A stretch of 64,000 nt of DNA from an uncultured Bacillota bacterium (GTDB lineage Bacteria; Sysuimicrobiota; Sysuimicrobiia; Sysuimicrobiales; Segetimicrobiaceae), in assembly GCA_963804645.1 (NCBI GenBank), contig CAWDRG010000022.1:64001-128000 (forward strand), given 5' to 3'. Shown here piece after piece: positions 1-39,567 of this stretch. The notes below the pieces were generated by a model. That model had not been told where the DNA came from. It made no database searches and saw only the letters and a list, made by a program, of their open reading frames with translations. Each line of letters opens with the position of its first letter. The stretch's first letter is position 1. The translations under genes were made by a program, and so were the position numbers.

Positions 1-1258
1 AGCTCTTCACCCGCTGGTCAGACCGTGCTTGCGGGACGGCCGGGTCCGGCGAGGACGGATTCGGCGCCAAAGCTCCGCGCGCAAGCGCAGTTGCCCCCGC
101 TTGAAGAGCCATGTGGCCGCGCTGGATCCCTTCTGTAGTGAGCGCGCGCAACGCGGCTAAGTTTGAGGCCAGCCCCACGCATCCGATGATCATGCTGAGT
201 GTTTTGGCCGATGTCACTCCAAGAATCCGCTGCGCTAAGAGCGCCCCCTCGTGCGCTTGCAGCGTGCCGCCCACGGTGCCCACTGCCATCGGCATCTCGA
301 GCCGCCCCAACAGCGCACCATCGTCGACCGCCCAAGTGGCCAGCGGGCGGTAACTCCCCTTGATCGCGGCGAACGCGTGGGCGCCGGCCTCAACGCCCCG
401 CCAGTCGTTCCCCGTCGCGAGTACCACCGCATCCACGCCATTCATAATACCTTTGTTATGTGTGGCAGCACGATAGGGATCGTCCTCCGCAAAATGTGAG
501 GCGGCAGCGATGCGATCGCACACCTCAAGCCCGCCGAGTCCATCTGTCGCTAACGAAGCTGCGGGGATGCGAGCGAACGCACGGACGCACCGATGATCTG
601 CCAAGTTGGTCAAGATGCGAAGTCCGCTCCGCCCGCCGGCGAGACGAGCCACATGATCCGCCAACGCCTCGGCCACCGTATTCGCCATATTCGCGCCCAT
701 GGCATCTCTGCAATCGATATCGATATGGACCACAAGACGCTCAGACGTACCATCGTCGCGCTTTATCGCACGGACCGCAACGCTGCGGGCGCCACCGCCA
801 CGTTCCTTCAGCCGGGGAACGGCCGCGTTGGCCAGGTGAAGCAACTCGTCCGTTCGCTCTAGTATCCGGTCGCGGGCGGCCTGGACATTCATAACGCCGC
901 AGACCTCTAACTGAGCAGTCATGAGGGCGTCGTCGGCTTCAGCGTGGAATCCCCCGCCGTCGCGCACAATGCGCGCGCCATTCGAGGCTGCGGCAATCAC
1001 GGAAGGCTCTTCAACAACCATCGGGACCACGTAGTCTTGGCCGTTGATCAAGAAATTGAGCGCAAGCCCAAATGGGAGCGCGTACACTCCTACGACGTTC
1101 TCAACCAGTCGTTCTGCCCGCACCGCCGGGAGCCCGCCGCTGTCGAGGACCGCGATATCCTCGCGCTTCAGGGATCCGCGTCTCACCAGCTCTTCTCGGC
1201 GCGCGTCGATTGAAAGACGACGGAATGCCGGAATCCGTGAGCCGTGTTCAGCGCCCAT
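1..1258 (-). CDS. mvaA: Class II hydroxymethylglutaryl-CoA reductase (3' end runs off the window)
   Basis: Not in the ORF track; translated by hand from the ATG at 1258: MGAEHGSRIPAF...LVENVVGVYALPFGLA...VPMVVEEPSVIAAAS...CRDAMGANMANTVAE...VGLASNLAALRALTTEGIQRGHM. Shows the ENVxG, EEPSV, DAMGxN and GIQRGHM class II motifs; overlaps the mvaK2 stop. Confidence 0.95.
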   Translation of the reverse strand, partial: MGAEHGSRIPAFRRLSIDARREELVRRGSLKREDIAVLDSGGLPAVRAERLVENVVGVYALPFGLALNFLINGQDYVVPMVVEEPSVIAAASNGARIVRDGGGFHAEADDALMTAQLEVCGVMNVQAARDRILERTDELLHLANAAVPRLKERGGGARSVAVRAIKRDDGTSERLVVHIDIDCRDAMGANMANTVAEALADHVARLAGGRSGLRILTNLADHRCVRAFARIPAASLATDGLGGLEVCDRIAAASHFAEDDPYRAATHNKGIMNGVDAVVLATGNDWRGVEAGAHAFAAIKGSYRPLATWAVDDGALLGRLEMPMAVGTVGGTLQAHEGALLAQRILGVTSAKTLSMIIGCVGLASNLAALRALTTEGIQRGHMALQAGATALARGALAPNPSSPDPAVPQARSDQRVKS

Positions 1259-2246
1259 GTCCCGGCCTCGGCGGGGCAAGTTGCAATCGCGTCACTCCGG
1301 TCGTGTTGACATCGATGTTCAGCACCGTAACGCCTCCCAGGACCGCGAGACGTGAGCAGAATTCATCGACGGCTCCCTGCTCAGCAAAGAAAGCGATGCC
1401 GATGTCGCCCCCACCTGCCCCAGAAGGCTTCGCTGCCCCCCCGAGCGCTGCACCAATTTCGGCCGCAAGACGAAAACGCGAGGTGACGATGGGGGTTGAA
1501 GCCGCTGCACCCAACTCTGCCAGCGTGGCTCCGTAGTCGCGCGCCGCATCAATGACCTCCCCGACCCGTCCGATCGCATAGGCTTGGCGGAATTGATCTG
1601 CCAGTGCCTTGAGGCGCTCGATGACGGCGATATAGGCGTGAGGGGAACGCTGAGCCAAGGACACCACGCTGCGGATCATTGCCACCGTGGATTCCGATTG
1701 GCCGGTCCAGAACACTACTGTTCTCAGCTGGGCAAGTGGTGAGAGCTGGACAATCTCCGGCGATCTTCCTGGCGGACGAACGAATCCGATGATTCCCCCA
1801 TACACGGCTGCGGCCACATCGGCTCCAGACCCTCGGCCACCCTGCGCCGCGCTGTGGGCTGCCTCCGCCGCTGAAAAGGCAAGGTGTCGGTTCGCGTCCA
1901 CTGAAACCCCGACCGTTTCCATGAGCGCGGCCACACTGGCCACCGCCGTCGCCGCGCTGGAACCGAGGCCGAGCTTCATCCCCCCGTTGCTGAAGGTGGA
2001 TGTATCCACCTGGACCGCCCCACGCGGGAGCGCAGATGCCCTGGCGCCGAGCGCAGCCACGGCCGCGCGCATGGCCTCGGTGACAAGGGGTGACTGAGAG
2101 ACTGACCCCGGTACATATCGCGCGACAGCGTAACGGTTGATGCTTGCCAGTACGGCGACGCCTCCCTCCAGCACGGCATACTCGCCAATCAAGAAGATCT
2201 TGCCTGGCGCGGCGACCGCGGATGCGTCTCCGAGGGTGGCGTTCAC
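1248..2246 (-). CDS. mvaK2: Phosphomevalonate kinase (GHMP kinase)
   Basis: APGKIFLIGEYAVL, KLGLGSSAA, GSGADVAA and KPSGAGGGD motifs. GTG start at 2246 forms a GTGA overlap with the mvaD stop. Confidence 0.88.
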   Translation of the reverse strand: MNATLGDASAVAAPGKIFLIGEYAVLEGGVAVLASINRYAVARYVPGSVSQSPLVTEAMRAAVAALGARASALPRGAVQVDTSTFSNGGMKLGLGSSAATAVASVAALMETVGVSVDANRHLAFSAAEAAHSAAQGGRGSGADVAAAVYGGIIGFVRPPGRSPEIVQLSPLAQLRTVVFWTGQSESTVAMIRSVVSLAQRSPHAYIAVIERLKALADQFRQAYAIGRVGEVIDAARDYGATLAELGAAASTPIVTSRFRLAAEIGAALGGAAKPSGAGGGDIGIAFFAEQGAVDEFCSRLAVLGGVTVLNIDVNTTGVTRLQLAPPRPGHGR

Positions 2247-3241
2247 GGTTGAACGCTCTCGAGGAGGTGGGCGCCCGGTCCCGGAGAGGCGACGACGCAA
2301 CGGACGACACCCGGCACGATTCGCACCGCGTTGTGGACGTTTTCCGCATCCCGTGCGGCGCACAGCACTTTGACGTGAGGACCGGCATCGATGGTAAAGA
2401 ATGCAGGGATCCCTGCTGCTCGCAAGTCGCCAACGGTGCGCATGACGTCTAAGGTCGTGGCATTCCAATACACGATCGGAGGTTCCGAGCTCAGCGTGGT
2501 TGCGTGCATTCGAAGACAGTTCCGCTCGGTGATGGCGCCGAGTCGGCTCAGGTCGTGCGCCGCAATGGCGGCGCGGGCTTCCGTGAGATCCCGATCTATC
2601 GACGCGAGCCAGGCCACGAAATATGGGGACGTGAGCGCGGCCCGTTCCATCGCCTCGGTCGATCCGATGCTTTTTCTCTCTGTCGACGTCATCACGATCA
2701 CCATGCGAACGTCCCACCCCTCGCCCTCGCTCAGGGGACGTGCCACCGAGTCCGCTCCGTCGGTCCGGGTCCCTCTCTGCATTTCGACGAACCCGCCGAA
2801 AATCGAGCGAGCCGCCGAGCCCGATCCACGGCGAGCCAGTTCGGAGAGTTCCACGGGTGACAGCTCAAGCGATGCGGCACGCGATGCCGCGAGTGCCAAG
2901 GCGGCGAATCCGGACGCGGATGATGCGATCCCGGAGGCTGTGGGAACGGTGTTGACGGTCACGACCTCCGCGCGCAGGGTCAGCTTGGCCTGCACGCGTA
3001 CGAGGTCAAGGAACGCGCGTACCCGGGCAGTCGTCCTTGCGTCGGTCCCAACGCCGTTAAGGGTCACGTGATCCTGAGTAAGCGCAGGAGCAAATTGGAC
3101 GGTGGTTGTGGTGCCCATCTCTCTCAATGTCAGCGACAGACTTCCCGTGGCTGGCAAGTTGAGTTCGCTCTGTCGCTTTCCCCAGTACTTGACGAGGGCG
3201 ACATTCGCTCCGGCGATCGCGGTGCAGGGTGCAAAGGTCAC
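2243..3241 (-). CDS. mvaD: Diphosphomevalonate decarboxylase
   Basis: NVALVKYWGK, GIASSASGFAAL, ARRGSGSAARS and FTIDAGPHVKVL motifs. Start uncertain (GTG 3241 or ATG 3283). Confidence 0.95.
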   Translation of the reverse strand: MTFAPCTAIAGANVALVKYWGKRQSELNLPATGSLSLTLREMGTTTTVQFAPALTQDHVTLNGVGTDARTTARVRAFLDLVRVQAKLTLRAEVVTVNTVPTASGIASSASGFAALALAASRAASLELSPVELSELARRGSGSAARSIFGGFVEMQRGTRTDGADSVARPLSEGEGWDVRMVIVMTSTERKSIGSTEAMERAALTSPYFVAWLASIDRDLTEARAAIAAHDLSRLGAITERNCLRMHATTLSSEPPIVYWNATTLDVMRTVGDLRAAGIPAFFTIDAGPHVKVLCAARDAENVHNAVRIVPGVVRCVVASPGPGAHLLESVQP

Positions 3242-3375
3242 ACGTCCTCCCTCGGATCCGCCAACGCATTGAAGCCGATTCATCTCTTCGCGCTCTCGTC
3301 CCTTCCGCGACGGCGTTCTGGCTCGGCGTGGACTGATCAGGCACCCCGGACGCCTCGGGGCAGCGTATAAAAAAT

Positions 3376-4326
3376 TCAAGGCTCGCCCAGCGTGGAGAGA
3401 AACCCATCATAGCCATGTTTGCGCCAGGTCCCCAGGACACGTTCCTCGCTTCCCGGGGCTAACGCGATGACCGCACCTCCCCCGCCGGCGCCCGTCATCT
3501 TTGCGCCAATAGCACCGGCGGACCGCGCCAGGTGAACCATGGTGTCAAGTTCGAAGGCGGAAACTCCGATCGCCACTAATAAGCCGTGGGCCACGTCCAA
3601 TAGCCGTCCGAGCACGTCGATCTCACCCGCCACGAGTGCGATAGTGCCCTCATCACTGAGCTCTCCCATCGTCTTTAGGATGCTCGCCGCCGCCGCGGTT
3701 TGGTCTCTCAGCCGTCGCACCTTCTCAACCTGAGCCAGCGTATGTCGAGGTCTTCCCGACAGGCCCACGCACAGAGTGATCGGTTGCCGAGTGTGGATCG
3801 GTTGCCATCCCGCGCCGCGATCGAACCGGCCAACTCCGCCTTCAAAAGCGACAGCCGTGTCGATGCCGGAAGGAGATCCGTGAAAGACGGCCTCCGCGTC
3901 GAAAGCCGCCTGCCGTGCTTCGTGATCGCCGAGGCCGACTGCCTGTGCGGTTGCCCGTGCGATCGCCGCCGACACCGCAGCAGAACTCCCCAGCCCCGCG
4001 CGGGACGGGATATCCACAGCGAGATCAAAGTCTAGGCCTCCGGCATCGAGCCGCGTGAGAATGGCCTGCAGCGCCCGTCCGACCTGCGAACCATCAGCCA
4101 CCTGCACCTCAAGGCGCCAAGCCGGGATGGACAGCCGGCCGTTCCCCTGCTTCGCAATCGCGGTGGCACCTTTCGGCAGGCTGGCAGCGACGGCCGGGTG
4201 TCCGTAGACAACTGCGTGCTCCCCGAAAAGTATCACTTTCCCATGGCCGAAGGCCGTCCGAGGACGAACATGGGCCGTCCCCGGGATTGGAGCACCACCA
4301 GTCAACGGGGCCCTCGGGCGATCCAT
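3376..4326 (-). CDS. mvaK1: Mevalonate kinase
   Basis: GKVILFGEHAVVYG, PSRAGLGSSAA, HGSPSGID and GAKMTGAGGGG motifs. Confidence 0.93.
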   Translation of the reverse strand: MDRPRAPLTGGAPIPGTAHVRPRTAFGHGKVILFGEHAVVYGHPAVAASLPKGATAIAKQGNGRLSIPAWRLEVQVADGSQVGRALQAILTRLDAGGLDFDLAVDIPSRAGLGSSAAVSAAIARATAQAVGLGDHEARQAAFDAEAVFHGSPSGIDTAVAFEGGVGRFDRGAGWQPIHTRQPITLCVGLSGRPRHTLAQVEKVRRLRDQTAAAASILKTMGELSDEGTIALVAGEIDVLGRLLDVAHGLLVAIGVSAFELDTMVHLARSAGAIGAKMTGAGGGGAVIALAPGSEERVLGTWRKHGYDGFLSTLGEP

Positions 4327-4484
4327 CTATCTGGCGCCGCCGGAACACATCAGGGATGCCATCCCATACTCCGCGCCGTCTTGATTGTGAGTGACGCTCC
4401 TCGCGAGCGACATGGCGGACTCCCCTGAGGGTTCGGATTGCAACGGTCGCCTCCGCGATTGCGGTATGTCGCCGGCGCCTATCC

Positions 4485-5654
4485 TCATCGCGAGTTCTCT
4501 ACCAGCGCCGCGAAATGAACTTCTAAGACGCCCAATTCTGTCAAACGAGCCGTTGTGGCCTGCCGGACAGCCAACACGTGAGGAAGGACCAGTTCGCGCT
4601 TGAAGTTACCGACGGTGAGGAACAGTTCATCCCCCCGCTTGGTCATTTCCACCTTCTCGATTTCTACGTGAGGCAACGGCAGGCGCAGGATCCACTCTCC
4701 ACCGCGCTCTTCAATCTGTTGCCCTGGACCGGTCGAAAGCACGTCCATGGGATTTCTATCACCCCATAAATCGCGAGCGAGACGCTTCAGCGCTCGTTCG
4801 CCCACAACTTCATCCTCGTACCAGGGAACCTCAAACAACGGGAGGGGTGCAAACGTCTCATGAATCATCTCGATATAGTGCTGCTGGACTGTTTGAAGGC
4901 GACGAAAGTAAGGATCACGGGAAGGCGCGGCGGTAAGAATACGATTGATGACGCCGGCGTCAACGGAATACCCGAACAAATTGAGATACGTGACGGCGCG
5001 CTGAGTTTCCTTGATGACCATTTTTTCCGGGTTCAGCACTACCCGATACGAGCTGATCTCGGGATCGGTCAGGATCCCACGCAGCTCAGTCACCTCGCTC
5101 TGAAGTTTGGCGAGTGCGTCGAACAGGTCATGAGAACGCGCCAGGCCGAGAGTCCGCGCGACCTTCCCGAGTTGGCCGCCCCACTGCCCGAGACGACCGG
5201 CATACCACTGGAACGATTCCGGCAAGCTCAATAAGCGCACGGATTCGCCGGTCGGTGCGGCGTCCACGATGACGGCTTCAAATTTCCGTTCGTGCAGTTG
5301 CCGATGAATGTGAAGGAGGCTGACGATTTCCTCGAGGCCGGGAATCATGGCGAGTTCCTCGGCGATGATTTGGCTCGTGCCGCGCTGCTGAAGCATCGAC
5401 GACACGTAGTCCTGCAGTTGGTGCCAGTGGGTGCGGATCTCGCTCAGTGCGTTGATCTCCTGTCCCCAAAGCCTCTCGGCTAGGGGCGTCGGCTCCGCCG
5501 CCAACCGTTGGTCGACGACATCGGCCAGACTATGCGCAATGTCGGTGCTCACCACCAGAGTTTGGTATCCCAATTCCGCGCATCGCAGGGCAGTCGCCGC
5601 GGCGATTGTTGTTTTACCCACGCCGCCCTTTCCCAAGTAGAGAATGAAACGCAT
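4485..5654 (-). CDS. Get3/ArsA-family (TRC40) ATPase with C-terminal HSP20/alpha-crystallin-like domain (Get3d-like)
   Basis: Deviant Walker A GKGGVGKTT, STDIAHSL and DAAPTG; a single ATPase domain. The C-terminus LRLPLPHVEIEKVEMTKRGDELFLTVGNFKRELVLP is typical of the ArsA_HSP20 tail. Start placed at MRFILYLG. Confidence 0.9.
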   Translation of the reverse strand: MRFILYLGKGGVGKTTIAAATALRCAELGYQTLVVSTDIAHSLADVVDQRLAAEPTPLAERLWGQEINALSEIRTHWHQLQDYVSSMLQQRGTSQIIAEELAMIPGLEEIVSLLHIHRQLHERKFEAVIVDAAPTGESVRLLSLPESFQWYAGRLGQWGGQLGKVARTLGLARSHDLFDALAKLQSEVTELRGILTDPEISSYRVVLNPEKMVIKETQRAVTYLNLFGYSVDAGVINRILTAAPSRDPYFRRLQTVQQHYIEMIHETFAPLPLFEVPWYEDEVVGERALKRLARDLWGDRNPMDVLSTGPGQQIEERGGEWILRLPLPHVEIEKVEMTKRGDELFLTVGNFKRELVLPHVLAVRQATTARLTELGVLEVHFAALVENSR

Positions 5655-5721
5655 CGTTTGCCGCTCTGCGCGACCTGGGCGCACAACTGCCCCCGAAACG
5701 AAGGGACCCGTACCGACGGTC

Positions 5722-5994
5722 CTAGCCGTCCTTTTTGTCTTGCTCTTCCGCGAGTTTTTCAAGGCTCTCAGCCAATTTACGAGTCAACGAAGCCAGTCCC
5801 CAGGTCGCCTCGCGACCGGCGGCCTTGAGATGTTTTCTGGGCTCCGGGGGCAACATGTTCACCGGGATCATCGCGATGCTCACCCCCGCCTCCAACAGAC
5901 TCTGTGCAAAACGCTGAACGGATCGCTCTCGATCGTTGGGTCCCTGGGCAATGTTGCGAACCGGCACTTCACGCTTGTCCTTCTCGGGCACCAT
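5722..5994 (-). CDS. 90-aa amphipathic helical protein, possibly CsmM/CsmN (chlorosome envelope)-like; copy 1
   Basis: ATG at 5994 with GAGGT upstream; aligns without gaps to the paralog at 39203-39475. The Csm resemblance is from recall only. Confidence 0.75.
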   Translation of the reverse strand: MVPEKDKREVPVRNIAQGPNDRERSVQRFAQSLLEAGVSIAMIPVNMLPPEPRKHLKAAGREATWGLASLTRKLAESLEKLAEEQDKKDG

Positions 5995-6047
5995 TGACGC
6001 ACCTCGCAATTGGATTGTATGGTCACGTCCAACGTATGACCCACCGC

Positions 6048-7574
6048 TCACACTTTGTCGACCCGACCCCGACGCCCCGTGGTTCGCCGTCCTTCGACAA
6101 CCTCGTCGAACGTCAACGTTGCCGGCGTATCTTGGTATTTGCCTTTGAGACCAGCAAGCACTCCGAGCCCTCTTGTCAACACATCCACGCCCCACTCGAC
6201 CGTTTCAAACGGCTCACGTGCCATCTCGCTGATCGCGTCGAGCATCTTGCTGGCACCGGTCAGTGCCCAGTCCATCGTACCCGGCGCGCCCACGTCCGAC
6301 GAAAGCCCGAAAGCGCGCTGCCAGAAGGGGACGCCATGCAGCAAGGTTCTCGCGATGACAGTCGGCGAGAGACTGTAATGAGTCGGCACCACGCCCGCAA
6401 GAATTCCGCCGCACGTCGCGGCATAGTCGCGATCGGTGAGGGCTTTCTCTCCGATCATTTTCAAGATCAACAACCAGACTCCCGCGAGCGAGCGGTTTTT
6501 GATAATCGTGACAATGAGATCTGCCGTACGCATATCCAAATCGAACGCCGCGCGCCACCGCTGCTCGTACCGCGAGAGGAACCGTGCATCCAACTGATCG
6601 GCCCGTAAGGCTTCATCCGCCACGCCGGCCGCGATTCCCGCGCTTTCCAGCGCCTTCTGAATGCCCTCCCCATTGATCGGATCAACGAAGTTCGCCGCGT
6701 CCCCGATGAGCAGCACCCGGTCGGCATAGTTGCCGCCAGCCGTGTGGTAGGTGTTCAGGGGCCAGCCGACGATCGGCCCGTCCAGCGTGGCGCCGCCCAA
6801 CCGCGCTCGCGCGACGGGATCCTGCGCGATCCAGGTGGTCAAGCGTTCGCGCAGGTTGATCCGGTAGCGCTGGTAGACGTCCATCACCATGCCCAAGCCC
6901 ACGTTCGCTCGATCGGGTCCCACCGGAAAGATCCAGGCGTAACCTGGGAAGAAACTCTCGTCGAATGAGATCTCGGCCTGAGACGGATCACCTTCCACGC
7001 CGTTGTAGTAGGCTCGCAGGGCTAGCATCGTGCTCTTCGGATCCCGATTGTCCACGCCGAGCGCCTTGGCGACGACCGAGTGAGCCCCATCGGCCGCGAT
7101 GACGAGTCGCCCACGGAAGCTGCAGGGGGTCTTGCTGCGCTGCGCGGATAGGGTGACGCCGTCGGCGTCGATGGCAACGTTCTTGACCTCGCATCCCTCG
7201 ATGGTGTCCACGTGCACTGCTCGCGCTCGCCGGAAGATAAGTTCGTCAAGGATATAGCGCGGCAATGTGCAGCCGTAACCGGGAAGATCCTCAATTTGCG
7301 GGATCTCCCCCGCTGTGATGCGTTGGCTGCCGAGGTGGAGCGACGCGCCGGTGAGTCGATTCGGACCAGCCTGCTCCAGCAAGGATCCACATCCCAGCGT
7401 CTCAAGCATCCGCAGGGATCGCGGGCTGACGAAGTCACCGCAGACTTTGTCCCGGGGGAAGCGGGCCTTATCGAGCAGAAGGACCCGCCAGCCCCGGACC
7501 GCGAGTCGAGTCGCGACGCTGCTCCCACCCGGCCCGCCGCCCACAACCATCACATCGTAGAGGTCCTTGCCCAT
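6048..7574 (-). CDS. Geranylgeranyl reductase family FAD-dependent oxidoreductase with C-terminal extension
   Basis: VVGGGPGG, FPRDKVCGD, IAADGAHS, PGYAWIFP and LIGDAANFVDPINGEGI motifs; GGAGGT RBS. Confidence 0.92.
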   Translation of the reverse strand: MGKDLYDVMVVGGGPGGSSVATRLAVRGWRVLLLDKARFPRDKVCGDFVSPRSLRMLETLGCGSLLEQAGPNRLTGASLHLGSQRITAGEIPQIEDLPGYGCTLPRYILDELIFRRARAVHVDTIEGCEVKNVAIDADGVTLSAQRSKTPCSFRGRLVIAADGAHSVVAKALGVDNRDPKSTMLALRAYYNGVEGDPSQAEISFDESFFPGYAWIFPVGPDRANVGLGMVMDVYQRYRINLRERLTTWIAQDPVARARLGGATLDGPIVGWPLNTYHTAGGNYADRVLLIGDAANFVDPINGEGIQKALESAGIAAGVADEALRADQLDARFLSRYEQRWRAAFDLDMRTADLIVTIIKNRSLAGVWLLILKMIGEKALTDRDYAATCGGILAGVVPTHYSLSPTVIARTLLHGVPFWQRAFGLSSDVGAPGTMDWALTGASKMLDAISEMAREPFETVEWGVDVLTRGLGVLAGLKGKYQDTPATLTFDEVVEGRRTTGRRGRVDKV

Positions 7575-7619
7575 CTTACCTCCCTCCTCGTGGCGAACGA
7601 CTCCCGCGTCAAGGGTAGT

Positions 7620-9380
7620 TTACAGGCCGTTTGGGCTCACATCTCGCACCGCCGCCCGGCTCTCTTGTTTGGCCCGGGCATACAAGCTGGCACGACGTAC
7701 GAACACGTCCTCGCTGGACTTGAGTAAGTGTTCCAATGCGCGGCGGGCTTCCTCGTGTTGCGTCTGCCCCAACGCAATGGCACAAATCATTTGGACACAG
7801 ACATCAGTATTTTCATAAGCGAGTGCTGCTATCGAATGTATGGCCGGCTGGGTCCCTGCAGCCACGAGTCCCATCCCAGCGGACAAGCGGACAAAAGGAT
7901 TGTCGTCGGCCAGCGCCTCGACCAACAAATCGTCAGCAGAAGAGCAACGAGCATGGCGACCCAGGAGCAACGCGGCTTGGCAGCGCAACGTCTCGTTCGG
8001 ATCGCGAATTGCTGTCGCGGCGATATCCAGCCAGCCGGGCATCTCTAAGAAGGCAAGCGCGAGCATCGCGGCGAGACGAACTCTGTCGTCTGAATCATGT
8101 TTGAACGCGGTTTCCAACGCTCCCGCTTGGTCGCACGCCCCGAGGCGGCCGAGCGCTGTCACCGCAGCCAGCCGGACTTCTGGTGCAGGATCCTGCAGTC
8201 CGGACACCATCAAGGTGAGGGCGGCCGGACCACCCCTCCGGTCCAGGGCGTTGATCGCAACTAATCTGGCCGTACAACTGCGGGCGTTCGTGACGGCGCG
8301 TCGAGTGCTCAGTGAGACGTCCGCCACCGTTTCATCCGCTCGCTGCTGTGTGGCCATCGCTTCGGCGCGTGGCTCAGTCAACCCAACGGTGCGGGCGACC
8401 AGGTCACCTTCGATGTTCGCAGAAATCGTGCCATCGCCGATCGCCACCTCAATCTGCTGCCTTAATGACAGACCGAGCGCCGCCCCAAGCGCGGCATTCC
8501 CCTCCAACTTGAGCAGCAGCGGTGCCTCGAAAGGCTGCGGCGGAAACCCTTCGAACGCCAGTTGGGTTCGCAGGCGCACGGGAATGGCAGCCCGGATATG
8601 GTAGATCCCATCCCGCCAGAGGGCGAACTCTACGGGGACGGGCGCCACAGAACCATCGAGCGAGATCTGTATTTGCTCTGTAGCCAGGACCCCCGGGAAG
8701 CGCCACGGTGACGCCTGCAGTGCAAGCTCGTTAACACGAATGTCCAGGCCGTTCAAGCCAACGCTGAAGCGGCCGCCGACGGTCAGCGATGCGGTTCGTC
8801 CAGCGAACGCCAGCCGGATTGTGTTCGCGGAGTCCGTCGTGTCCAGCAGACAGTGGATGAGACTCGAAGCATTGAGCATCACGTAACACATACCAAGCTT
8901 GGTGGACATACGGTCGCCACTGTAGCTGTCCAAGTGAAAGGCGAATCGGCCGGTCAGATTCATCACACTACGACTGATCGTTCCGGCCAGGGTGAATGGG
9001 GTTCGGAACGTTATCCGTTCCGTCTCCCCTTCGATCTGGACCTGCATGCTCACTCGTATCGGTACGTCACTCTGCACTTCGATCTGGCCGTCACGGGCAG
9101 CGAGGGTCCCAGGCGGCGAAATGGCGGCCAGATCGCATTCGATGTGCAGGCTCGTGACCCAAACGGGAAAGTCCTCGGCAAAGCGCAGCTCGAAAGGCGC
9201 ACTTGAAATATCGATATCGGTGACTTGAAAGGTCGTGCCGCTCACGGCGATGGTGAACTCGCCGGTCAGATCGAGGGAGAAAAAACACATCGCCAACATG
9301 ACGTCAACGCGGTTTGGCCCGAGTTCGGTGTCCAGGTGAAAAGGCACGGAGAGATACGCCGGGCTCTCCGGGTCAACCAT
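7620..9380 (-). CDS. HEAT/PBS-lyase repeat protein with a duplicated beta-rich N-terminal domain
   Basis: Repeats LQDPAPEVRLAAVTALG, DSDDRVRLAAMLAL, RDPNETLRCQAALLLG, LADDNPFVRLSAGMGL; AGGAGGT RBS. Confidence 0.8.
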   Translation of the reverse strand: MVDPESPAYLSVPFHLDTELGPNRVDVMLAMCFFSLDLTGEFTIAVSGTTFQVTDIDISSAPFELRFAEDFPVWVTSLHIECDLAAISPPGTLAARDGQIEVQSDVPIRVSMQVQIEGETERITFRTPFTLAGTISRSVMNLTGRFAFHLDSYSGDRMSTKLGMCYVMLNASSLIHCLLDTTDSANTIRLAFAGRTASLTVGGRFSVGLNGLDIRVNELALQASPWRFPGVLATEQIQISLDGSVAPVPVEFALWRDGIYHIRAAIPVRLRTQLAFEGFPPQPFEAPLLLKLEGNAALGAALGLSLRQQIEVAIGDGTISANIEGDLVARTVGLTEPRAEAMATQQRADETVADVSLSTRRAVTNARSCTARLVAINALDRRGGPAALTLMVSGLQDPAPEVRLAAVTALGRLGACDQAGALETAFKHDSDDRVRLAAMLALAFLEMPGWLDIAATAIRDPNETLRCQAALLLGRHARCSSADDLLVEALADDNPFVRLSAGMGLVAAGTQPAIHSIAALAYENTDVCVQMICAIALGQTQHEEARRALEHLLKSSEDVFVRRASLYARAKQESRAAVRDVSPNGL

Positions 9381-9458
9381 CTCTTCACCTCCTACGAGGA
9401 CGCGTTCGCCCCTAGTGCCAAATCGTCTTCCGTCAGTGCGGAGCGAATTCAGTCACGA

Positions 9459-10037
9459 TCATCCGGTCGCAGCCGCCTGCGCGGGGATGCAGAGGTCCAA
9501 CAGCACGCCCTCGTTTTGCCCGCCGCCGATGGCGACGAAGGTGATATCCTCCCCCTCCACGGTCAGGGTGTGCAGCGCGTTGACCACTGCAGGAGCCGAC
9601 TTCTCGCCGATCAGATCGCTGTCGTGGTAGGCTCGGAGCCACACGGGTTCAGCCGTACTCTGGGCGACACGCGCGGTAACCCGGCCAACGGCATATGGCA
9701 GGCGAACCTGCACACCCTTCTCCGGCACGCGTAGCTTGGACTTACCCGTGGGCATTCCCCAACCGACCACGCCAAGAGATCCCGCCTGCGTGGCCGTGAA
9801 GGCAAATCCTTGTTTCTGGACAGTCGCATCGAGGTCTGTGCCAGGTGCAACATCCGTGAAGTCCACACAACTTGTGTCATCGGGGGGGCACCCCGCGAGG
9901 GCCGCCTTGGTCATTAGCTTCCGCGCGCCAGAGATGACTCCGAGAATGACGTAGAACAGGATGCTGCGCGGAACGCCGGCACGCGATAGGGACTTCGCGA
10001 GTTCTTCGAGCGAAGGCTGCGGTTGATCCTCCGGCAT
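9459..10037 (-). CDS. Hypothetical protein (helical N-terminus, beta-rich C-terminus)
   Basis: Co-oriented ORF inside the operon with GGGAG RBS and protein-like composition; no family recognised. Confidence 0.65.
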   Translation of the reverse strand: MPEDQPQPSLEELAKSLSRAGVPRSILFYVILGVISGARKLMTKAALAGCPPDDTSCVDFTDVAPGTDLDATVQKQGFAFTATQAGSLGVVGWGMPTGKSKLRVPEKGVQVRLPYAVGRVTARVAQSTAEPVWLRAYHDSDLIGEKSAPAVVNALHTLTVEGEDITFVAIGGGQNEGVLLDLCIPAQAAATG

Positions 10038-10089
10038 GGCTCTCACTCCCTTTGATGGTGATCTGAACCCCGAGATCGACGTTGCGTGC

Positions 10090-10398
10090 CTAGAACTTTA
10101 GGAAGTCATCCACGGTCATATCCGGATCGCGTCCACTGACGACAAAGCTGTCCATGTTGGAGATGGACCACAAGATCGTCGCGGCTTTGAACAGCTCGAG
10201 GTCGCGGAGCAAGAGCTGCCAGCAAACGCTCTCAGGCGTCTGCGCGAAGGACTTCCCTTCCTGGTAAAACATCTTCAGCAACGTCTTGATTAGTTCGATG
10301 CCTCCCTTAACGCAGCAATACAGCACTTCGTCTCTGCAGGCTTGACTCGGGGTATGCTCCGTACAGGCTCGGCGAAGGACGTCCTCAGTTGCACTCAC
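10090..10398 (-). CDS. Small Cys-containing hypothetical protein
   Basis: 102 aa, GTG start with AAAGGGGG upstream, co-oriented between operon genes. Confidence 0.6.
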   Translation of the reverse strand: MSATEDVLRRACTEHTPSQACRDEVLYCCVKGGIELIKTLLKMFYQEGKSFAQTPESVCWQLLLRDLELFKAATILWSISNMDSFVVSGRDPDMTVDDFLKF

Positions 10399-10517
10399 GA
10401 CTTTGTCCCCCTTTCGCAGAGTACATTTGCCTCATCTTGCGGTGGATCATGGCCTGCTCGCGGTTCACGGTGGCAGACGCGCCGCCTCTGAAAGCATCTC
10501 AGTGGAGAGACTCACCA

Positions 10518-11585
10518 TCACAGCTTGCGATGGACAACGTAGTCAACCAGAGCACGCAATAGCGCCTTTGCCCCGGACTCAGGAATGAAGCACAGCTCGG
10601 TGTGCATGATCTCCGTGGCTCGGCGAGCGAAGCGCCTCGCCACTTCCTCGGCATGGAGAATACTCCCGCGCTGGTCCATCTTGTCCAGTATCCACGCCAC
10701 CTCCGAAGCGCTCTTTTTCACACGTCGTTTGTTGAGGATCGAGACCAAATGCCGTCGTTCCTTCTGGTTGCAGTTGTTGAGCAAGTGGATGAGCATGACA
10801 GTTCGCTTGCCTTCCCACAGGTCCCCAGCGCGTTCCTTTCCATACAGGATCTGCTCACCCCTGAGATTCAGAACGTCGTCCTGGATTTGGAATGCAATGC
10901 CGAGATGATAGCCAAAGCTGTTGAACGGATTGATTTGGTGCGGGGCTGCCCCGCCGATGATGGCGCCAATGCGACAAGGACTGATACACGTGTACCATCC
11001 GGTCTTCTTGAGGGACATCATGAAGTAGTCTTTCTCGGTCAAGTCCCAAAACGCGTTCCGCACCCACCCGAGTTCAAGGGATTGTCCTTCCACAGCCTTC
11101 AGGACCATCCACTCGATCTCTTCAAAAATGCGTTGCGTCCGATCAACACCCACGACATTGAAGTTGTCCAGCAGCGCTCGCAGTGTAAGAACATTCATCG
11201 CATCGCCAGCGTTGATGGCAAGTGGGATGCCATACTGCGCGTGTAACGTAGGCAGACCACGACGCAGCAATGAGTCGTCCTCAATGTCGTCGTGGACGAG
11301 GAACGCGTTGTGGTATAGTTCGATGGCCGCGGCGGAGAACAGTGCGCTATCGCGTCGTCCGCCAAAAGCCTCGCACGTGCTCATGCAGAGCGCTGGGCGA
11401 AGTCCTTTTCCCGGACGCAGCGGGTACTCTAGAACGAGATCGCGTAGTGTCGTTCGTGGCAGAGACGTCGGAACTCGTCGGACCAATTCTTCAATCGCCA
11501 GCGCCTTGTACTCAGCTAATCTCTGTTCAAGCCAGTCCTCGTCGTATCCGTAAGAATCGACGGGCCGGAGTTCCGTGGTGCTCAT
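10518..11585 (-). CDS. Trans-polyprenyl diphosphate synthase (IspA/CrtE family), copy 1
   Basis: GKGLRP, first Asp-rich motif HDDIEDDSLLRRG, GQSLEL, KKT, second motif FQIQDDVLN, DLWEGKRT. Confidence 0.95.
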   Translation of the reverse strand: MSTTELRPVDSYGYDEDWLEQRLAEYKALAIEELVRRVPTSLPRTTLRDLVLEYPLRPGKGLRPALCMSTCEAFGGRRDSALFSAAAIELYHNAFLVHDDIEDDSLLRRGLPTLHAQYGIPLAINAGDAMNVLTLRALLDNFNVVGVDRTQRIFEEIEWMVLKAVEGQSLELGWVRNAFWDLTEKDYFMMSLKKTGWYTCISPCRIGAIIGGAAPHQINPFNSFGYHLGIAFQIQDDVLNLRGEQILYGKERAGDLWEGKRTVMLIHLLNNCNQKERRHLVSILNKRRVKKSASEVAWILDKMDQRGSILHAEEVARRFARRATEIMHTELCFIPESGAKALLRALVDYVVHRKL

Positions 11586-13727: not shown

Positions 13728-16317
13728 TCCGCGTTCCCCGCGTCGGCGGCCAGGCCGATCCAGCGCCTCCTCGAGCCGCACGATGACCTCGGGCCGGGGC
13801 GCGGCCGGGCTGATGCGCATCGGCGGCCCCACGCGGACCCGCACGCGGGTGCGCGGCCCGCACGGCCACAGCCTGGAGATCGTCGTTGCCCTCCATCCAC
13901 ACGGGCACGATCGGCAGGCCCGCCTCCCGCGCCATGACGGCGATCCATCCCCCGCCGCGATCCCATCCGCGCCGGGACGAGATCCGCAGATCCGGGGTCG
14001 CGATCGGGCTGTCCCCGGCCTCGATCAACTGGCTGAGATCGTGCAGCCCGGCCCGGGTGTCGCCGAACCCGGGGAGCACGACGAAGCTGAACGTCGAGCG
14101 GCCAGCACAGATAGTAGACCAGGCCGACGAGCAGCCGCGTGGGCGCGGGGACCCCCGGGCGCGGAGCGAAGAACTCGGAGAAGTCGACGTTCGCGACCGT
14201 GACGAGACGCCGCCGCGCGCGGCGCGGGAGCGCGGCATACACGACGAAACTGTCGAGCCAATGGTAGTGCGGCGCGGCGGCGACGATGCACGGGCCCTCG
14301 GGCGGCGCCGCGCCGGGCGCCCACTCCACCGTGAGCCTCATCGTCGTGATCGCCCACGCGCCGATCAACAGGGGCTGCGAGACCCGGCGGACGCAGCGGC
14401 CGAGGAGTCCACGGGACCACGCCGGCTGCCGGCTCGGCAGCCGGCGCGGCGCCCGCGCGGGGGCCGCCGCACGCGTCACGGCCCTGAGGTGCCCGACCGT
14501 CGTCTTCGACGTAATCGCGAGCCAGTCGAGCGGGCGGGACAGATCGCGCTCCAACAGGGTGAGCAGTTCCGCGGTGTCGAGCGAGCTCAGCCCCAACTCG
14601 TCGGTCACGGAACGGCGTCCTCGGCGGCCACCTCGCCGCGTGTGTCGCTCAGGTACCGGGCCAGGAGCCGCACGCGGCGGTGCGGGTCGCCGGTCGCGCG
14701 GATCTCGGCGAGCGACGGCCGCTCGGCGCTCCGCTCCTCGGCCGCCGCGCCGGCCTCCTGCAGTTCCTGCACCCGGCGCGCGACGTCGTCGCGGCGGACC
14801 TTGAGCAGGCCGGCTCGAGGAAAATCCCGGTCCGGCCACAGCGTCCAGCCGCGGACCTGCTGGTGCGCTTCCAGCGTCCGGTTGGCGTCGGCGATCACGC
14901 GCTCCGGCGCCGCTTCCGGGGTGAGCAGCAGCAGCGGCATGCACCTCGGTGATTCCGCGCCGCGCGAGCCCGACGACGACGGCCTCGCGCACCCCCGGCA
15001 CGCGCTCGAGCGCGGCCTCGACATCGCCGGGATGCACGTTGAGACCCTCGCCCGTCACGATCACGTCCTTCTTGCGGCCGACGAGATACAGCTGCCCGCG
15101 GGCATCCCGCGTCGCGAGGTCTCCGGTATGCAAGAAGCCGTCGGCCGGCGCGTCCCCCGCGGCGTGCCCGTCGCCGAAGACGCGGTGCGATACGCTCGGG
15201 CCCCGCACCAGCACCTCCCCGTCCTCGCCGATGCGCACCTCGTAATGCGGCAGCGGGCTGCCGATCGAGCCGGGGCGCGCGCCGAACGGATGGTTGATCT
15301 TGAGCGAGACGAGCGCGGTCGTCTCGGTCAGCCCGTATCCCTGGACGAGGACGTACCCGCACTCGTACCAGAACCGCTCGTCCTCCGACGGCAGGGGCGC
15401 GCCCCCCACCAGCAGCACCCAGAACGAGTACCCGAGCTGCGCGTGCGTCGCAAGAAACAGGAGATGCCGCCGCCACGGGAAGAAGCGGATCGTCCGCACG
15501 CGCTCGCCCAGCGAACGTCCTCCGCGCCCGTACGGCGTCTCCTGCAGCGCCCGGGCAAGCAGCCGCTGCACGCGGGGCACGGCCAGGAGCAGGGTGATCC
15601 GGTTCTGCCGGATCGTGCGGATCACGTGCGCCGGGTCCACCGACTCGCTGTAGAGCGCGCTGAGGCCGAGCGCCAGCGGGACGCAGAGGCCCATCAGCAG
15701 GCCCTGCACGTGGCTGAGCGGCGAGAGCACCAGCATCCGGCACCGCAGCCACCGCGTCACCCACCGCCAGCGGTCGAACGCGTGCAGCTGCGACACCAGG
15801 TTCCGGTGTGTGAGGATCACGCCGGTGGGCTCGCGGGTGGTGCCCGAGCTGTACAGGATCAGCACGGCGTCGTCCGGGTCCGCGGCCACCGCCGCGCGGG
15901 GGCGCCGCGGGCGGACCGTCCTCGGCGAACAACTCGCCCACCGGGCAGCAGGCGCACGCGATCCCGTCGACGTCCTGGTCCGGACCGTGCACCACCAGCG
16001 CCGGCCGGATCGCCTCGACCAGGTGGCGCACCCAGTGGGGCGAGGCCGTCTCGTCCACCGGCACCACCACCACGCCCGCCGCGACCGCGCCGAGCAGCAC
16101 GCCGGCCCACTCCGGACTGTTGCCCGCCCACAGCAGCACGCGCGCGCCCGGCGCGCCCCCCCGGGCGCCGAGGCGCGCGGCCGCGCGCCACGCTTCCTCG
16201 TGGAGGCGCCGATAGCTCCACCAGCGTGTCCCGTATCCTCGGCGGAGGCCGACCGCGGGGCGGTCGCCGTACCGCGGCAGCCGGTCCAGCAGCGCGCGGA
16301 GCGTCTCCGACTGTCAC
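13718..16317 (-). CDS. Acyl-AMP/CoA ligase - acyl carrier - PlsC-like acyltransferase fusion (multiple apparent frameshifts)
   Basis: Adenylation motifs YSSGTTREPTG, QGYGLTET, LHTGDL, VGRKKD; carrier motif ELGLSSLD; acyltransferase HYHWLD and LPIVPVW. The coherent protein hops frames about 7 times. Confidence 0.85.
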
Positions 16318-17374
16318 CGAAAGCACAGCTCCACAGCGAGCTGAGCGTGAAATGGGGCTGACAGTACGAGACGTAGACGCGCCGTCCGCCGTCCGCGGCA
16401 AACTGCGGATGCTCGAACCCGAGGTAGACGAGCTCGCTCGTCGACCGGTGTGGCACGCGGCCGAGCGACTGCGGGGGAGAGTACGGACCCGTGATCCGCG
16501 GAGCCAGGCGGACGATCAGCTCCTTCGTGTAGCTGTCGATGTACACCATCAGGTAGCCGCCGAGGTAGCGGTTGTGCGAGACCGAGTAGTTGCTGCCCGC
16601 GAGGCCCACGCCGCCGGCCTGCGTCAGGTCGGCGGTCCAGCCGTCGGACTCATCCTGCCGGAACACGTACGCGGACGGGTCCCCGAGGCGCGCCGCCGGG
16701 GCGCGCGCGACGATGCCCCGCACGACGTGCTCGCGGCGCACGCTGCCGAACACGTAGACGTCGTCCCCCTCACGGATCGTCTGCACGCCGAGATGGAAAT
16801 CGTCCGCGGCCATGCGCCACAGGCGCCACTCCCCGTCGCGCCGCACGCGCCGGCACGCGCCCGAGGCGGGATCGAGCGCGGCGATCCCCACCCCGAGGTT
16901 GCGGAACCCCCATGGGGTCGTGGGATCGATCGTCTGCACCCCCAGATAGTAGAGGTACACCGTGCCGTCGACCAGGATCCCGTGCTCGGGCCAGAAGCGG
17001 ATCCGCGCGGCCCGCTCCTCCGGCGTCGGGGTCAGGATCTCGACCGGGCACCCGTCGGCGTCGTGATAGAAGCGCATCTCCGCGAACGCCTCGCGCGCGC
17101 CGCGCCCGGTGGACGTCGCGGCGCAGTTCGCGAGGAAGACGCACGGCTCGTCGGTCGCCAGCTGAAACGGCGGGCGGGCCCCTTCGCGGGCGCCGGCGTC
17201 GTTCGGGACCGCGAGCAGCGTGTCGGAGAACACGAACAGGGTCCGGTCGCCGAGGTCGATCGACTGCCCCCCGTCCTGCCCGATCATCGCCCACGACGCC
17301 GCCCGCGCGCGGTGGCAGTACCCCAGCGGGCGCGTAAAGCGCACGGGCACGCGCGGATCAGCCGCGTCGATCAC
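16314..17374 (-). CDS. DUF4185-like beta-propeller protein (apparent frameshift near the C-terminus)
   Basis: GQDGGQSIDLGDRTLFVFSDT, YSVSHNRYLGGYLMVY, GPYSPP and YLGFEHPQF motifs; GTGA overlap with the upstream gene. Confidence 0.72.
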
Positions 17375-39202: not shown

Positions 39203-39475
39203 CTAGCCGGGCTTCTCCTCCGATTCACGCGACAGCGTTTCGAGCGCGTCCGCCACCGTCCGGGACAGTGAGGCCAGCGCAAGCGCCAGTTCTCGGACGG
39301 CGGTCTTGACGTGCGCACGGGGTTCGGCCGGCAGCATGTTCACCGGCATCATCGCGAGACTAAACCCCGCGGCGAGGACGTCGCGCGCGAGGCATCCGGT
39401 GCCGTCGCCCAGCCTCGGCCGCGCGGCACCCGCATGTGGTGGTGACGTCTCGAGTCTCCCTTTCGCGGTCGTCAC
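39203..39475 (-). CDS. 90-aa amphipathic helical protein, possibly CsmM/CsmN-like; copy 2
   Basis: GTG at 39475 with GGAGG RBS; ungapped paralog of 5722-5994. Confidence 0.75.
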   Translation of the reverse strand: MTTAKGRLETSPPHAGAARPRLGDGTGCLARDVLAAGFSLAMMPVNMLPAEPRAHVKTAVRELALALASLSRTVADALETLSRESEEKPG

Positions 39476-39567
39476 CGAGTCGCCTCCCGGTTGGATCACG
39501 AGTCACCGCGCGTCGCGGCACAAGGCTAGCATAACATAAACGGTCCGGAGGAGCGCGGGCACCCGGA

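Follow-up and report, generated by a model that had tools for sequence, protein, structure and literature searches.

CsmM and CsmN are regarded as proteins specific to chlorosomes, and we know of no account of how chlorosome envelope proteins reach the lipid monolayer. In Chloroflexus aurantiacus, csmM is Caur_0139 and csmA is Caur_0126 according to the part of Tang 2011 (PMC3150298) used here, and the sizes reported for CsmM and CsmN are 11 and 18 kDa in the part of PMC3175400 used here. Another relevant group consists of ATPases that combine a Get3 domain with an alpha-crystallin domain. Homologues of this class are widespread in bacteria and are kept into plant chloroplasts, and both their natural clients and the role of the alpha-crystallin domain are stated to be unknown in the sections of Farkas 2019 (PMC6593721) and Barlow 2023 (PMC10248533) cited here; the cited sections of the latter do not mention chlorosomes. 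In this work, we describe a locus in an uncultured Bacillota bacterium (GTDB phylum Sysuimicrobiota), in which a small protein of the CsmM/CsmN family, sm1, is encoded directly upstream of such an ATPase. The locus lies in a stretch of 64,000 nucleotides (positions 64,001 to 128,000 of contig CAWDRG010000022.1, assembly GCA_963804645.1), which is called the window below. What is new is the pairing of a CsmM-family protein with a Get3/alpha-crystallin ATPase outside photosynthesis. In the open-access literature, we found no paper that contains both 'chlorosome' and 'Get3', and the papers that contain 'chlorosome' and 'ArsA' discuss no link of this kind.

The two genes, with the evidence for each (ORF, open reading frame; RBS, ribosome-binding site; AF2, AlphaFold2; aa, amino acids), are as follows:

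5722-5994, minus strand: sm1, a 90-aa protein of the CsmM/CsmN family (ORF, RBS, HMMER family, BLASTP, AF2 model)
4485-5654, minus strand: Get3/ArsA ATPase of 389 aa with a C-terminal alpha-crystallin (ArsA_HSP20) domain (Pfam, NCBIfam)

The start codon of sm1 is an ATG with GAGGT 6 nt upstream, and the protein includes the core LLEAGVSIAMIPVNMLPPEPRKHLKAAGRE...LASLTR. The gene begins 53 nt after the gene of a geranylgeranyl (GG)-reductase homologue and ends 67 nt before the ATPase start. The open frame of the ATPase covers 4485-5762 on the minus strand; the ATG at 5654 is the probable start codon, and the protein begins MRFILYLGKGGVGKTT. A preliminary description of this DNA, made from the letters alone, had placed the 90-aa protein and the ATPase between the GG-reductase homologue and the mevalonate genes, and its coordinates and description of the arrangement are correct.

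Sequence comparison indicates that sm1 is a true relative of CsmM and CsmN, namely a non-photosynthetic member of their superfamily. The preliminary description had proposed such a likeness, and the searches bear it out: BLASTP aligns 67 aa of sm1 with a 96-aa protein at the csmM position at 36% identity (E 5e-13) and, more weakly, with a 147-aa protein at the csmN position (E 7e-4). The homology of sm1 to CsmM/CsmN is thus detectable at the level of sequence. Both reference genes come from a locus (L125) with the gene order BchU equivalog (596 bits), (bacterio)chlorophyll synthase (425 bits), 96-aa gene and 147-aa gene, where the pair is located ~12 kb from a CsmA match. Exactly these two proteins are recorded in the sources as hypothetical proteins of Chloroflexus species. 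Since the order, spacing and sizes fit the published layout of Chloroflexus aurantiacus, we infer that the two genes are csmM and csmN, an identification made by gene order, size and locus tags and not by a named reference sequence.

The family around sm1 was collected by an exhaustive HMMER search of 1.84 billion cluster representatives. Including the query, it comprises 52 representatives at E<=1e-3 and 20 at E<=1e-10. The family alignment contains 46 of the 52, leaving out four fragments (P0023, P0037, P0043 and P0044) and two very long sequences (P0045 and P0047). The resulting profile matches 28 of the 401 sampled Chloroflexota genomes, mostly in 3-4 copies that include a tandem pair of ~100 and ~150 aa. 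Chlorosome-bearing Chloroflexota genomes have a third, and sometimes a fourth, CsmM-like profile match in frames of 260-430 aa, apart from the csmM/csmN pair (for example, G361:C1:3190618-3190860 and G425:C45:28166-28405); these additional copies may be further envelope proteins.

The AF2 model of sm1 (pLDDT 75.9) consists of a disordered N-terminus, a helix at residues 21-46, an LPP kink and a helix at residues 50-89. The first helix is moderately hydrophobic and the second is long and amphipathic, and the N-terminal part contains the motif EVPVRNI. In sm1 and in the csmM- and csmN-position proteins, the most hydrophobic 19-residue stretch occurs at an equivalent position, with maximal Kyte-Doolittle means of 1.26, 1.44 and 1.61, respectively. 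We read sm1 as a helical hairpin protein that would lie on a lipid surface.

The ATPase scores 279.4 bits against the Pfam model ArsA_ATPase (PF02374), 60.2 bits against ArsA_HSP20 (PF17886) and 255.7 bits against the TIGR00345 model for GET3/ArsA/TRC40, the cut-off of which is 135. It has a single Get3/ArsA domain and a C-terminal alpha-crystallin domain, which corresponds to Group 6 of Farkas or to Get3d in the broad sense. The preliminary description had called it Get3d-like; the name holds as regards the single domain with the alpha-crystallin tail, but not in the strict sense, as the score against the NosAFP equivalog model NF050088 is 114.4 bits vs a cut-off of 325. Similarity to Nostoc All4481 is weak (E 2.7e-16), vs E 6e-42 for the archaeal Get3 3ZQ6. 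The P-loop GKGGVGKT and the motif DAAPTG are invariant in 30 aligned ATPase homologues, and the gene at 4485-5654 is the only full-length match to the ArsA_ATPase model in the host genome. A quick maximum-likelihood tree with 87 rows places the ATPase inside a clade of 30 rows from Caldilineaceae and Ktedonobacterales with a Shimodaira-Hasegawa-like approximate likelihood ratio (SH-aLRT) support of 99, and the Nostoc clade is separate from it. The earlier statement that this ATPase type occurs mainly in phototrophs has to be abandoned: the cited part of Farkas 2019 (PMC6593721) lists the class in many non-phototrophs, and the nearest relatives here belong to Caldilineaceae and Ktedonobacterales. 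Two rows of the tree call for separate mention. One from a bin labelled Acetobacteraceae (L086) has an ATPase nearly identical to the Nostoc ones, which is probably due to mis-binning, and another (L074) has an extreme branch length, which is probably a translation artefact.

A function in arsenic resistance was considered and rejected, since the TIGR04291 (ArsA) model gives 103 bits vs a cut-off of 650. Unlike an ArsA arsenite pump, the protein has one domain in its 389 aa, and no ars gene is present among the scanned neighbours on either side of sm1 and the ATPase, in agreement with the earlier remark that arsB, arsC and arsR are absent nearby.

ATPases of this kind are also found at the chlorosome loci themselves. 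In all three such loci read, two ATPase genes are located between csmM/csmN and csmA, which supports, for these Chloroflexota, the earlier statement that ArsA homologues lie near csm genes; in L125, the sole chlorosome locus scanned with Pfam, both ATPases carry ArsA_HSP20. In L125, the segment between the ATPases and csmM/csmN (13958-16615, minus strand) contains the gene of an alpha/beta hydrolase and those of a 293-aa and a 237-aa protein, neither of which matches a family.

The co-occurrence of sm and ATPase genes appears to be recurrent, as judged from contigs of exactly equal size: the nearest ATPase homologues in the large protein collection stem from contigs that agree with those of sm members in size and, except in one pair, in source. 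In particular, the contigs of sm P0002 (83% identity), of ATPase P0099 (81%) and of P0075 (70%), a homologue of a HEAT-repeat protein of 586 aa that is encoded in the same gene row as sm1, are all 5252 bases long. Coinciding sizes from the same source are also found for sm P0006 and ATPase P0100 (15446 bases), sm P0010 and ATPase P0110 (3927 bases), and sm P0015 and ATPase P0112 (18638 bases). The pair of sm P0003 and ATPase P0156 (both 7543 bases) is weaker because the source labels differ (ENA vs Logan). An exact match to an ATPase is thereby obtained for 5 of the 22 sm members of known contig size, vs 0.14 expected at any other fixed offset in length. Two sm members match a HEAT-protein homologue in contig size, the one not yet mentioned being P0014 with P0078 (both 44865 bases), and the HEAT protein P0080 similarly matches ATPase P0104 (both 10087 bases). 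The HEAT-repeat protein therefore seems to accompany the sm/ATPase pair on other contigs, the gene order there being deduced. These three would make up a mobile module, to which the GG-reductase homologue probably belongs as well.

A short N-terminal segment follows the pairing. A V/I-x-V/I-x-N-I/L/V segment is found in all six ATPase-paired copies (sm1, P0002, P0003, P0006, P0010 and P0015), and the csmM-position protein also has an N-terminal segment of the V-x-V-x-N type. Many other family members are encoded next to an FGGY-family kinase; those of them with a visible N-terminus lack a V-x-V-x-N segment, except for one doubtful match (L133), which lies upstream of the likely start. Note that these FGGY-context copies are mutually related, so they do not count as independent cases. 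An N-terminal V-x-V segment is likewise absent from the csmN-position protein, from sm2, a second family member encoded in the window, and from the orthologue of sm2 on the metagenome locus L139.

Another connection is provided by small partner genes of related ATPases. Among 80 related loci, 10 have a gene of ~75 aa immediately downstream of the ATPase, as have all three loci of the host's own phylum (L152-L154). The labels of the bins from which the ten loci come are Chloroflexota, Methylomirabilota, Aminicenantes, Bacillota and, in one case, an archaeon. In each of the ten cases, the partner protein ends with a V/I-x-V/I motif; the partner genes of L152-L154 and of the ten loci, which are among L008-L087, have a C-terminal V/I-x-V/I-E/Q. 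When the partner profile is compared with the CsmM-like family, hhalign aligns it with the second helix over 42 columns (95%, E 3.6e-8). A profile built from the partners only finds the csmM-position genes among 18,218 ORFs at E values of 4e-5 to 7e-4, and among the 60,772 ORFs of the host genome it finds exactly sm2 and sm1. In the ESM Atlas, the surroundings of sm1 include a cluster with PF27253 (AF_1253 family), probably the ~75-aa partner type. The partner family thus appears to be a second, independent link between the sm family and the ATPase, made through the shared helix. The host genome contains neither a partner-type ATPase of its own phylum nor a ~75-aa partner.

No Pfam or NCBIfam model exceeds its cut-off for sm1, 45 family members, sm2, the csmM- and csmN-position genes or the ten partner genes; the best matches below the cut-offs for the sm family and the partners are scattered (E 0.001-0.1). 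Searches of PDB sequences with the sm-family and partner profiles gave nothing meaningful.

The host, a soil bacterium, is not a phototroph, as judged from its gene content. Its genome (5.3 Mb, 96.8% complete) contains no match to Photo_RC (PF00124), CsmA (PF02043) or BchH (TIGR02025), that is, to the reaction centre, the chlorosome baseplate or bacteriochlorophyll synthesis; as a positive control, PF02043 was matched in the Chloroflexota genomes G313 and G361. Because the genome is without chlorosome or photosystem genes, the row containing sm1 and the ATPase is not an ordinary phototroph locus, and this candidate explanation is rejected. The preliminary description had noted that bacteriochlorophyll and reaction-centre genes are absent from the window, and had pointed out that a full chlorosome gene set elsewhere in the genome would make the locus an ordinary one. 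The first remark is right for the window and the genome search is likewise negative, and such a gene set was not found.

The operon of ~12 kb is probably a laterally acquired island, since it is GC-poor and its ATPase is nested among Chloroflexota sequences. The GC content of the gene row is 0.57-0.64 vs 0.70-0.73 in the DNA on both sides, and the ATPase shares 50-58% identity with sequences of Caldilineaceae and Ktedonobacterales (Chloroflexota) vs at most 46% with those of its own phylum. Of 94 genomes from the phylum, that of the host alone contains the sm family.

From position 2 to 11585, the window consists of one row of genes, all on the minus strand, from a prenyl synthase to a reductase of 3-hydroxy-3-methylglutaryl-CoA (HMG-CoA). 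In addition to sm1 and the ATPase, the following features are considered, the last of which lies outside the row:

10518-11585, minus strand: polyprenyl diphosphate synthase similar to IdsA and geranylgeranyl diphosphate (GGPP) synthase, first gene of the operon (Pfam polyprenyl_synt, 199.8 bits)
10090-10398, minus strand: 102-aa protein without a Pfam or NCBIfam match (ORF)
9459-10046, minus strand: 195-aa protein without a Pfam or NCBIfam match (ORF)
7620-9380, minus strand: 586-aa protein with an all-beta N-terminal domain followed by HEAT repeats (Pfam HEAT_2, AF2 model)
6048-7574, minus strand: flavoprotein of the geranylgeranyl-reductase family, 508 aa, with a C-terminal extension of ~150 aa (TIGR02032, Pfam FAD_binding_3 and GGR_cat)
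3376-4326, minus strand: mevalonate kinase (Pfam)
2243-3379, minus strand: diphosphomevalonate decarboxylase (Pfam)
1248 to ~2303, minus strand: GHMP kinase at the position of phosphomevalonate kinase (Pfam)
2-1279, minus strand: HMG-CoA reductase (Pfam)
39203-39499, minus strand: sm2, the second copy of the CsmM/CsmN family (profile search, 53% identity to sm1)

The mevalonate genes provide an extra, second route to isopentenyl diphosphate (IPP), because IspH is encoded elsewhere in the host genome. For the polyprenyl synthase, the best NCBIfam models are IdsA and GGPP_syn, both below cut-off. The GG-reductase homologue belongs to the TIGR02032 family (202.9 bits vs a cut-off of 158.8); against the BchP/ChlP, MenJ and archaeal lipid reductase equivalogs, it stays below the cut-offs. 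A carotenoid body is unlikely, since SQS_PSY is unmatched in the genome. The 586-aa protein has seven full-length metagenome homologues at 43-70% identity. AF2 predicts very long strands in its N-terminal domain, with low model confidence at residues 173-362; a Foldseek search against PDB gave only HEAT and alpha-Rep matches, all in the C-terminal half, and residues 1-340 found no named cluster in an ESM Atlas search. Promoter and terminator scans gave no surplus over shuffled sequence.

The second copy, sm2, is 53% identical to sm1 over 62 aa. It is located in high-GC DNA, ahead of genes for a 526-aa protein and a carbamoyltransferase, with a second polyprenyl synthase at a distance of 7 kb. 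Both sm1 and sm2 are less than 8 kb from a polyprenyl synthase. The order sm2, 526-aa gene, carbamoyltransferase and polyprenyl synthase is also found on L139. In the window, these genes are part of a large high-GC cluster for lipid or glycolipid (12444-45000, mostly minus strand). It includes a glycosyltransferase of the GT28 type and another of GT4, a DUF4185/AMP-binding protein, an alpha/beta hydrolase and a PGAP1-like hydrolase, two ketosynthase-like genes, an acyl carrier protein, two short-chain dehydrogenases/reductases, a methyltransferase and a phosphopantetheinyl transferase, besides the synthase, the carbamoyltransferase and the 526-aa protein already named.

We give about even credence to the reading that sm1 and the ATPase are a client or partner pair by which an amphipathic hairpin protein would be placed on an isoprenoid-rich lipid surface. 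According to this reading, the island would supply a mevalonate route to IPP and a prenyl diphosphate synthase of the C20 type. Once sm1 has been translated, its first, moderately hydrophobic helix would be shielded by the ATPase dimer, which would recognise the protein through the conserved helix LPxExRxH..AGRE, the N-terminal V-x-V-x-N-I strand, or both. ATP-dependent release would then deliver sm1 onto a membrane region or a lipid deposit rich in the reduced isoprenoid of the operon. In parallel, the two ATPases of the chlorosome loci would do the same for CsmM and CsmN. Complex prediction for the ATPase dimer with sm1 gave scores of 0.16 and 0.12 (mark 0.32), which we weighed neither way.

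Several observations weigh against the pair placing sm1 on a lipid surface. The hydrophobic stretch of sm1 (mean 1.26) is weaker than that of a typical tail-anchor client of Get3. The sharing of contigs by sm and ATPase genes rests on equal sizes, and gene order on those contigs is deduced. In the reference genomes, a strong sm match is absent near all of the 80 related ATPase loci, and 14 other window proteins (10 of the operon and 4 of the second-copy locus) have no homologue at E<=1e-10 within 10 kb of these loci; even the nearest reference relatives of the ATPase, in Caldilineaceae and Ktedonobacterales, are without sm or operon genes within 10 kb. Conversely, the closest sm homologues in the 401 Chloroflexota genomes (G387, G182 and G491), in which CsmA and Photo_RC are also unmatched, have no ATPase nearby. 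In 17 of 20 low-GC metagenome loci, the sm gene adjoins a convergent FGGY kinase and in most cases follows a glucokinase, so in many lineages the family works with no ATPase beside it. As to the conservation of the neighbourhood, which the preliminary description had proposed to check, the sm/ATPase pairing recurs, but the other window proteins do not accompany the related ATPases, and many family members are found in this unrelated sugar-kinase context. Finally, with the models used, the genome has no bacterial-type HMG-CoA synthase, type-2 IPP isomerase or phytoene/squalene synthase; TIGR01835 (HMG-CoA synthase) gives only weak matches of 25-28 bits outside the mevalonate row, and no type-2 IPP isomerase match exceeds the cut-off.

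The sugar-kinase context itself is seen on low-GC soil contigs (L130-L150 except L139) and in one Chloroflexota genome (L122), in which a CsmM-like gene is flanked by a glucokinase and a convergent FGGY-family kinase. Genes for alpha/beta hydrolases and pairs of ketosynthases are often present within a few kb of them, and ketosynthase genes are near the FGGY-context sm gene in five of the low-GC loci.

The element that sm1 has in common with the soluble 75-aa partners is the second helix and not the hydrophobic one, and this favours a different division of labour, in which sm1 would serve the ATPase as an adaptor or regulatory subunit, as a variant of the 75-aa partner that leans towards the membrane, while the real clients would be other proteins such as membrane-bound enzymes of the island. 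The frequent adjacency of the partner gene to such ATPases, in the host's own phylum as well as in the related loci, is in its favour, and sm1 may stand in for the partner because the host genome has none besides sm1 and sm2. However, according to the parts of PMC3150298 and PMC3175400 used here, CsmM and CsmN are structural proteins that are abundant in the chlorosome envelope; they are not chaperone subunits, and many sm-family members have no ATPase nearby. We regard an adaptor role as possible, though on balance improbable.

Alternatively, sm1 could coat a pigment-free, chlorosome-like body that is bounded by a lipid monolayer and stores the reduced isoprenoid of the operon, which is in essence how the preliminary description had read the locus. 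The homology of sm1 to proteins that belong to the lipid monolayer of chlorosomes (as given in the part of bioRxiv 10.1101/2020.07.07.190934 used here) points in this direction, as does the position of sm1 beside genes for an additional route to IPP, a prenyl synthase and the GG-reductase homologue, with both copies near polyprenyl synthases. This is rather unlikely in our judgement, in that no enzyme for neutral storage lipids was identified, a match to SQS_PSY is lacking in the genome, and the sm family occurs in sugar-kinase and ketosynthase contexts as well. We are similarly doubtful of the fuller version, in which a coat of the CsmM type would be loaded onto such an isoprenoid body by the ATPase, with the LPxExRxH helix and the V-x-V strand as the recognition signal of this ATPase class; if it is true, a more general bacterial coating system for lipid bodies was either the source of the chlorosome envelope or descended from it. 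The adjacency might also be accidental, sm1 being a membrane-surface or stress protein of a general kind that was carried along with the transferred island. That the other operon genes are not conserved around the relatives of the ATPase, and that sm genes have several unrelated contexts, would fit such an accident, but the five exact matches of contig size greatly exceed the expectation, the N-terminal motif tracks the pairing, and the independent 75-aa partner family has the same helix, so we consider it very improbable indeed.

The tie between the Get3 class and CsmM outside photosynthesis consists of the pairing, a motif that tracks it and a second partner family with the same helix. In this way, the locus points to a natural client for a little-understood class of ATPases, and the protein pairs and motifs can be tested in vitro.

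Compared with the ArsA of ars operons, the ATPase has the same P-loop fold and Pfam family, but one domain instead of two, and no ars genes among the scanned neighbours. It resembles Group 6 (in the cited part of PMC6593721) and Get3d (in that of PMC10248533) in having a single Get3/ArsA domain with ArsA_HSP20. The site of Nostoc All4481 (PDB 3IGF/8EGK) is described as incomplete, whereas the P-loop and switch motifs are intact here; in contrast to Nostoc Get3d, the NosAFP equivalog score is not reached and the host is not a phototroph.

The differences of sm1 from CsmM and CsmN lie in its surroundings: the host has no CsmA, reaction-centre or BchH match, the gene is in a mevalonate/prenyl operon and not beside bchU/bchK, and it directly adjoins the ATPase, vs a distance of 6-7 kb in the chlorosome loci. 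Alike are the detectable homology, the similar length, the succession of hydrophobic helix, P...LP turn and amphipathic helix, the presence of Get3-type alpha-crystallin ATPases in the neighbourhood and, for CsmM, the N-terminal V-x-V motif. The ~75-aa partners differ from sm1 in that they have no hydrophobic first helix, are encoded downstream of the ATPase instead of upstream, and carry V/I-x-V/I at the C-terminal end instead of the N-terminal one. What they share with sm1 is the helix LPxExRxH..A(R/K)E, a short strand motif of the V/I-x-V/I type and an adjacent ATPase of the same class.

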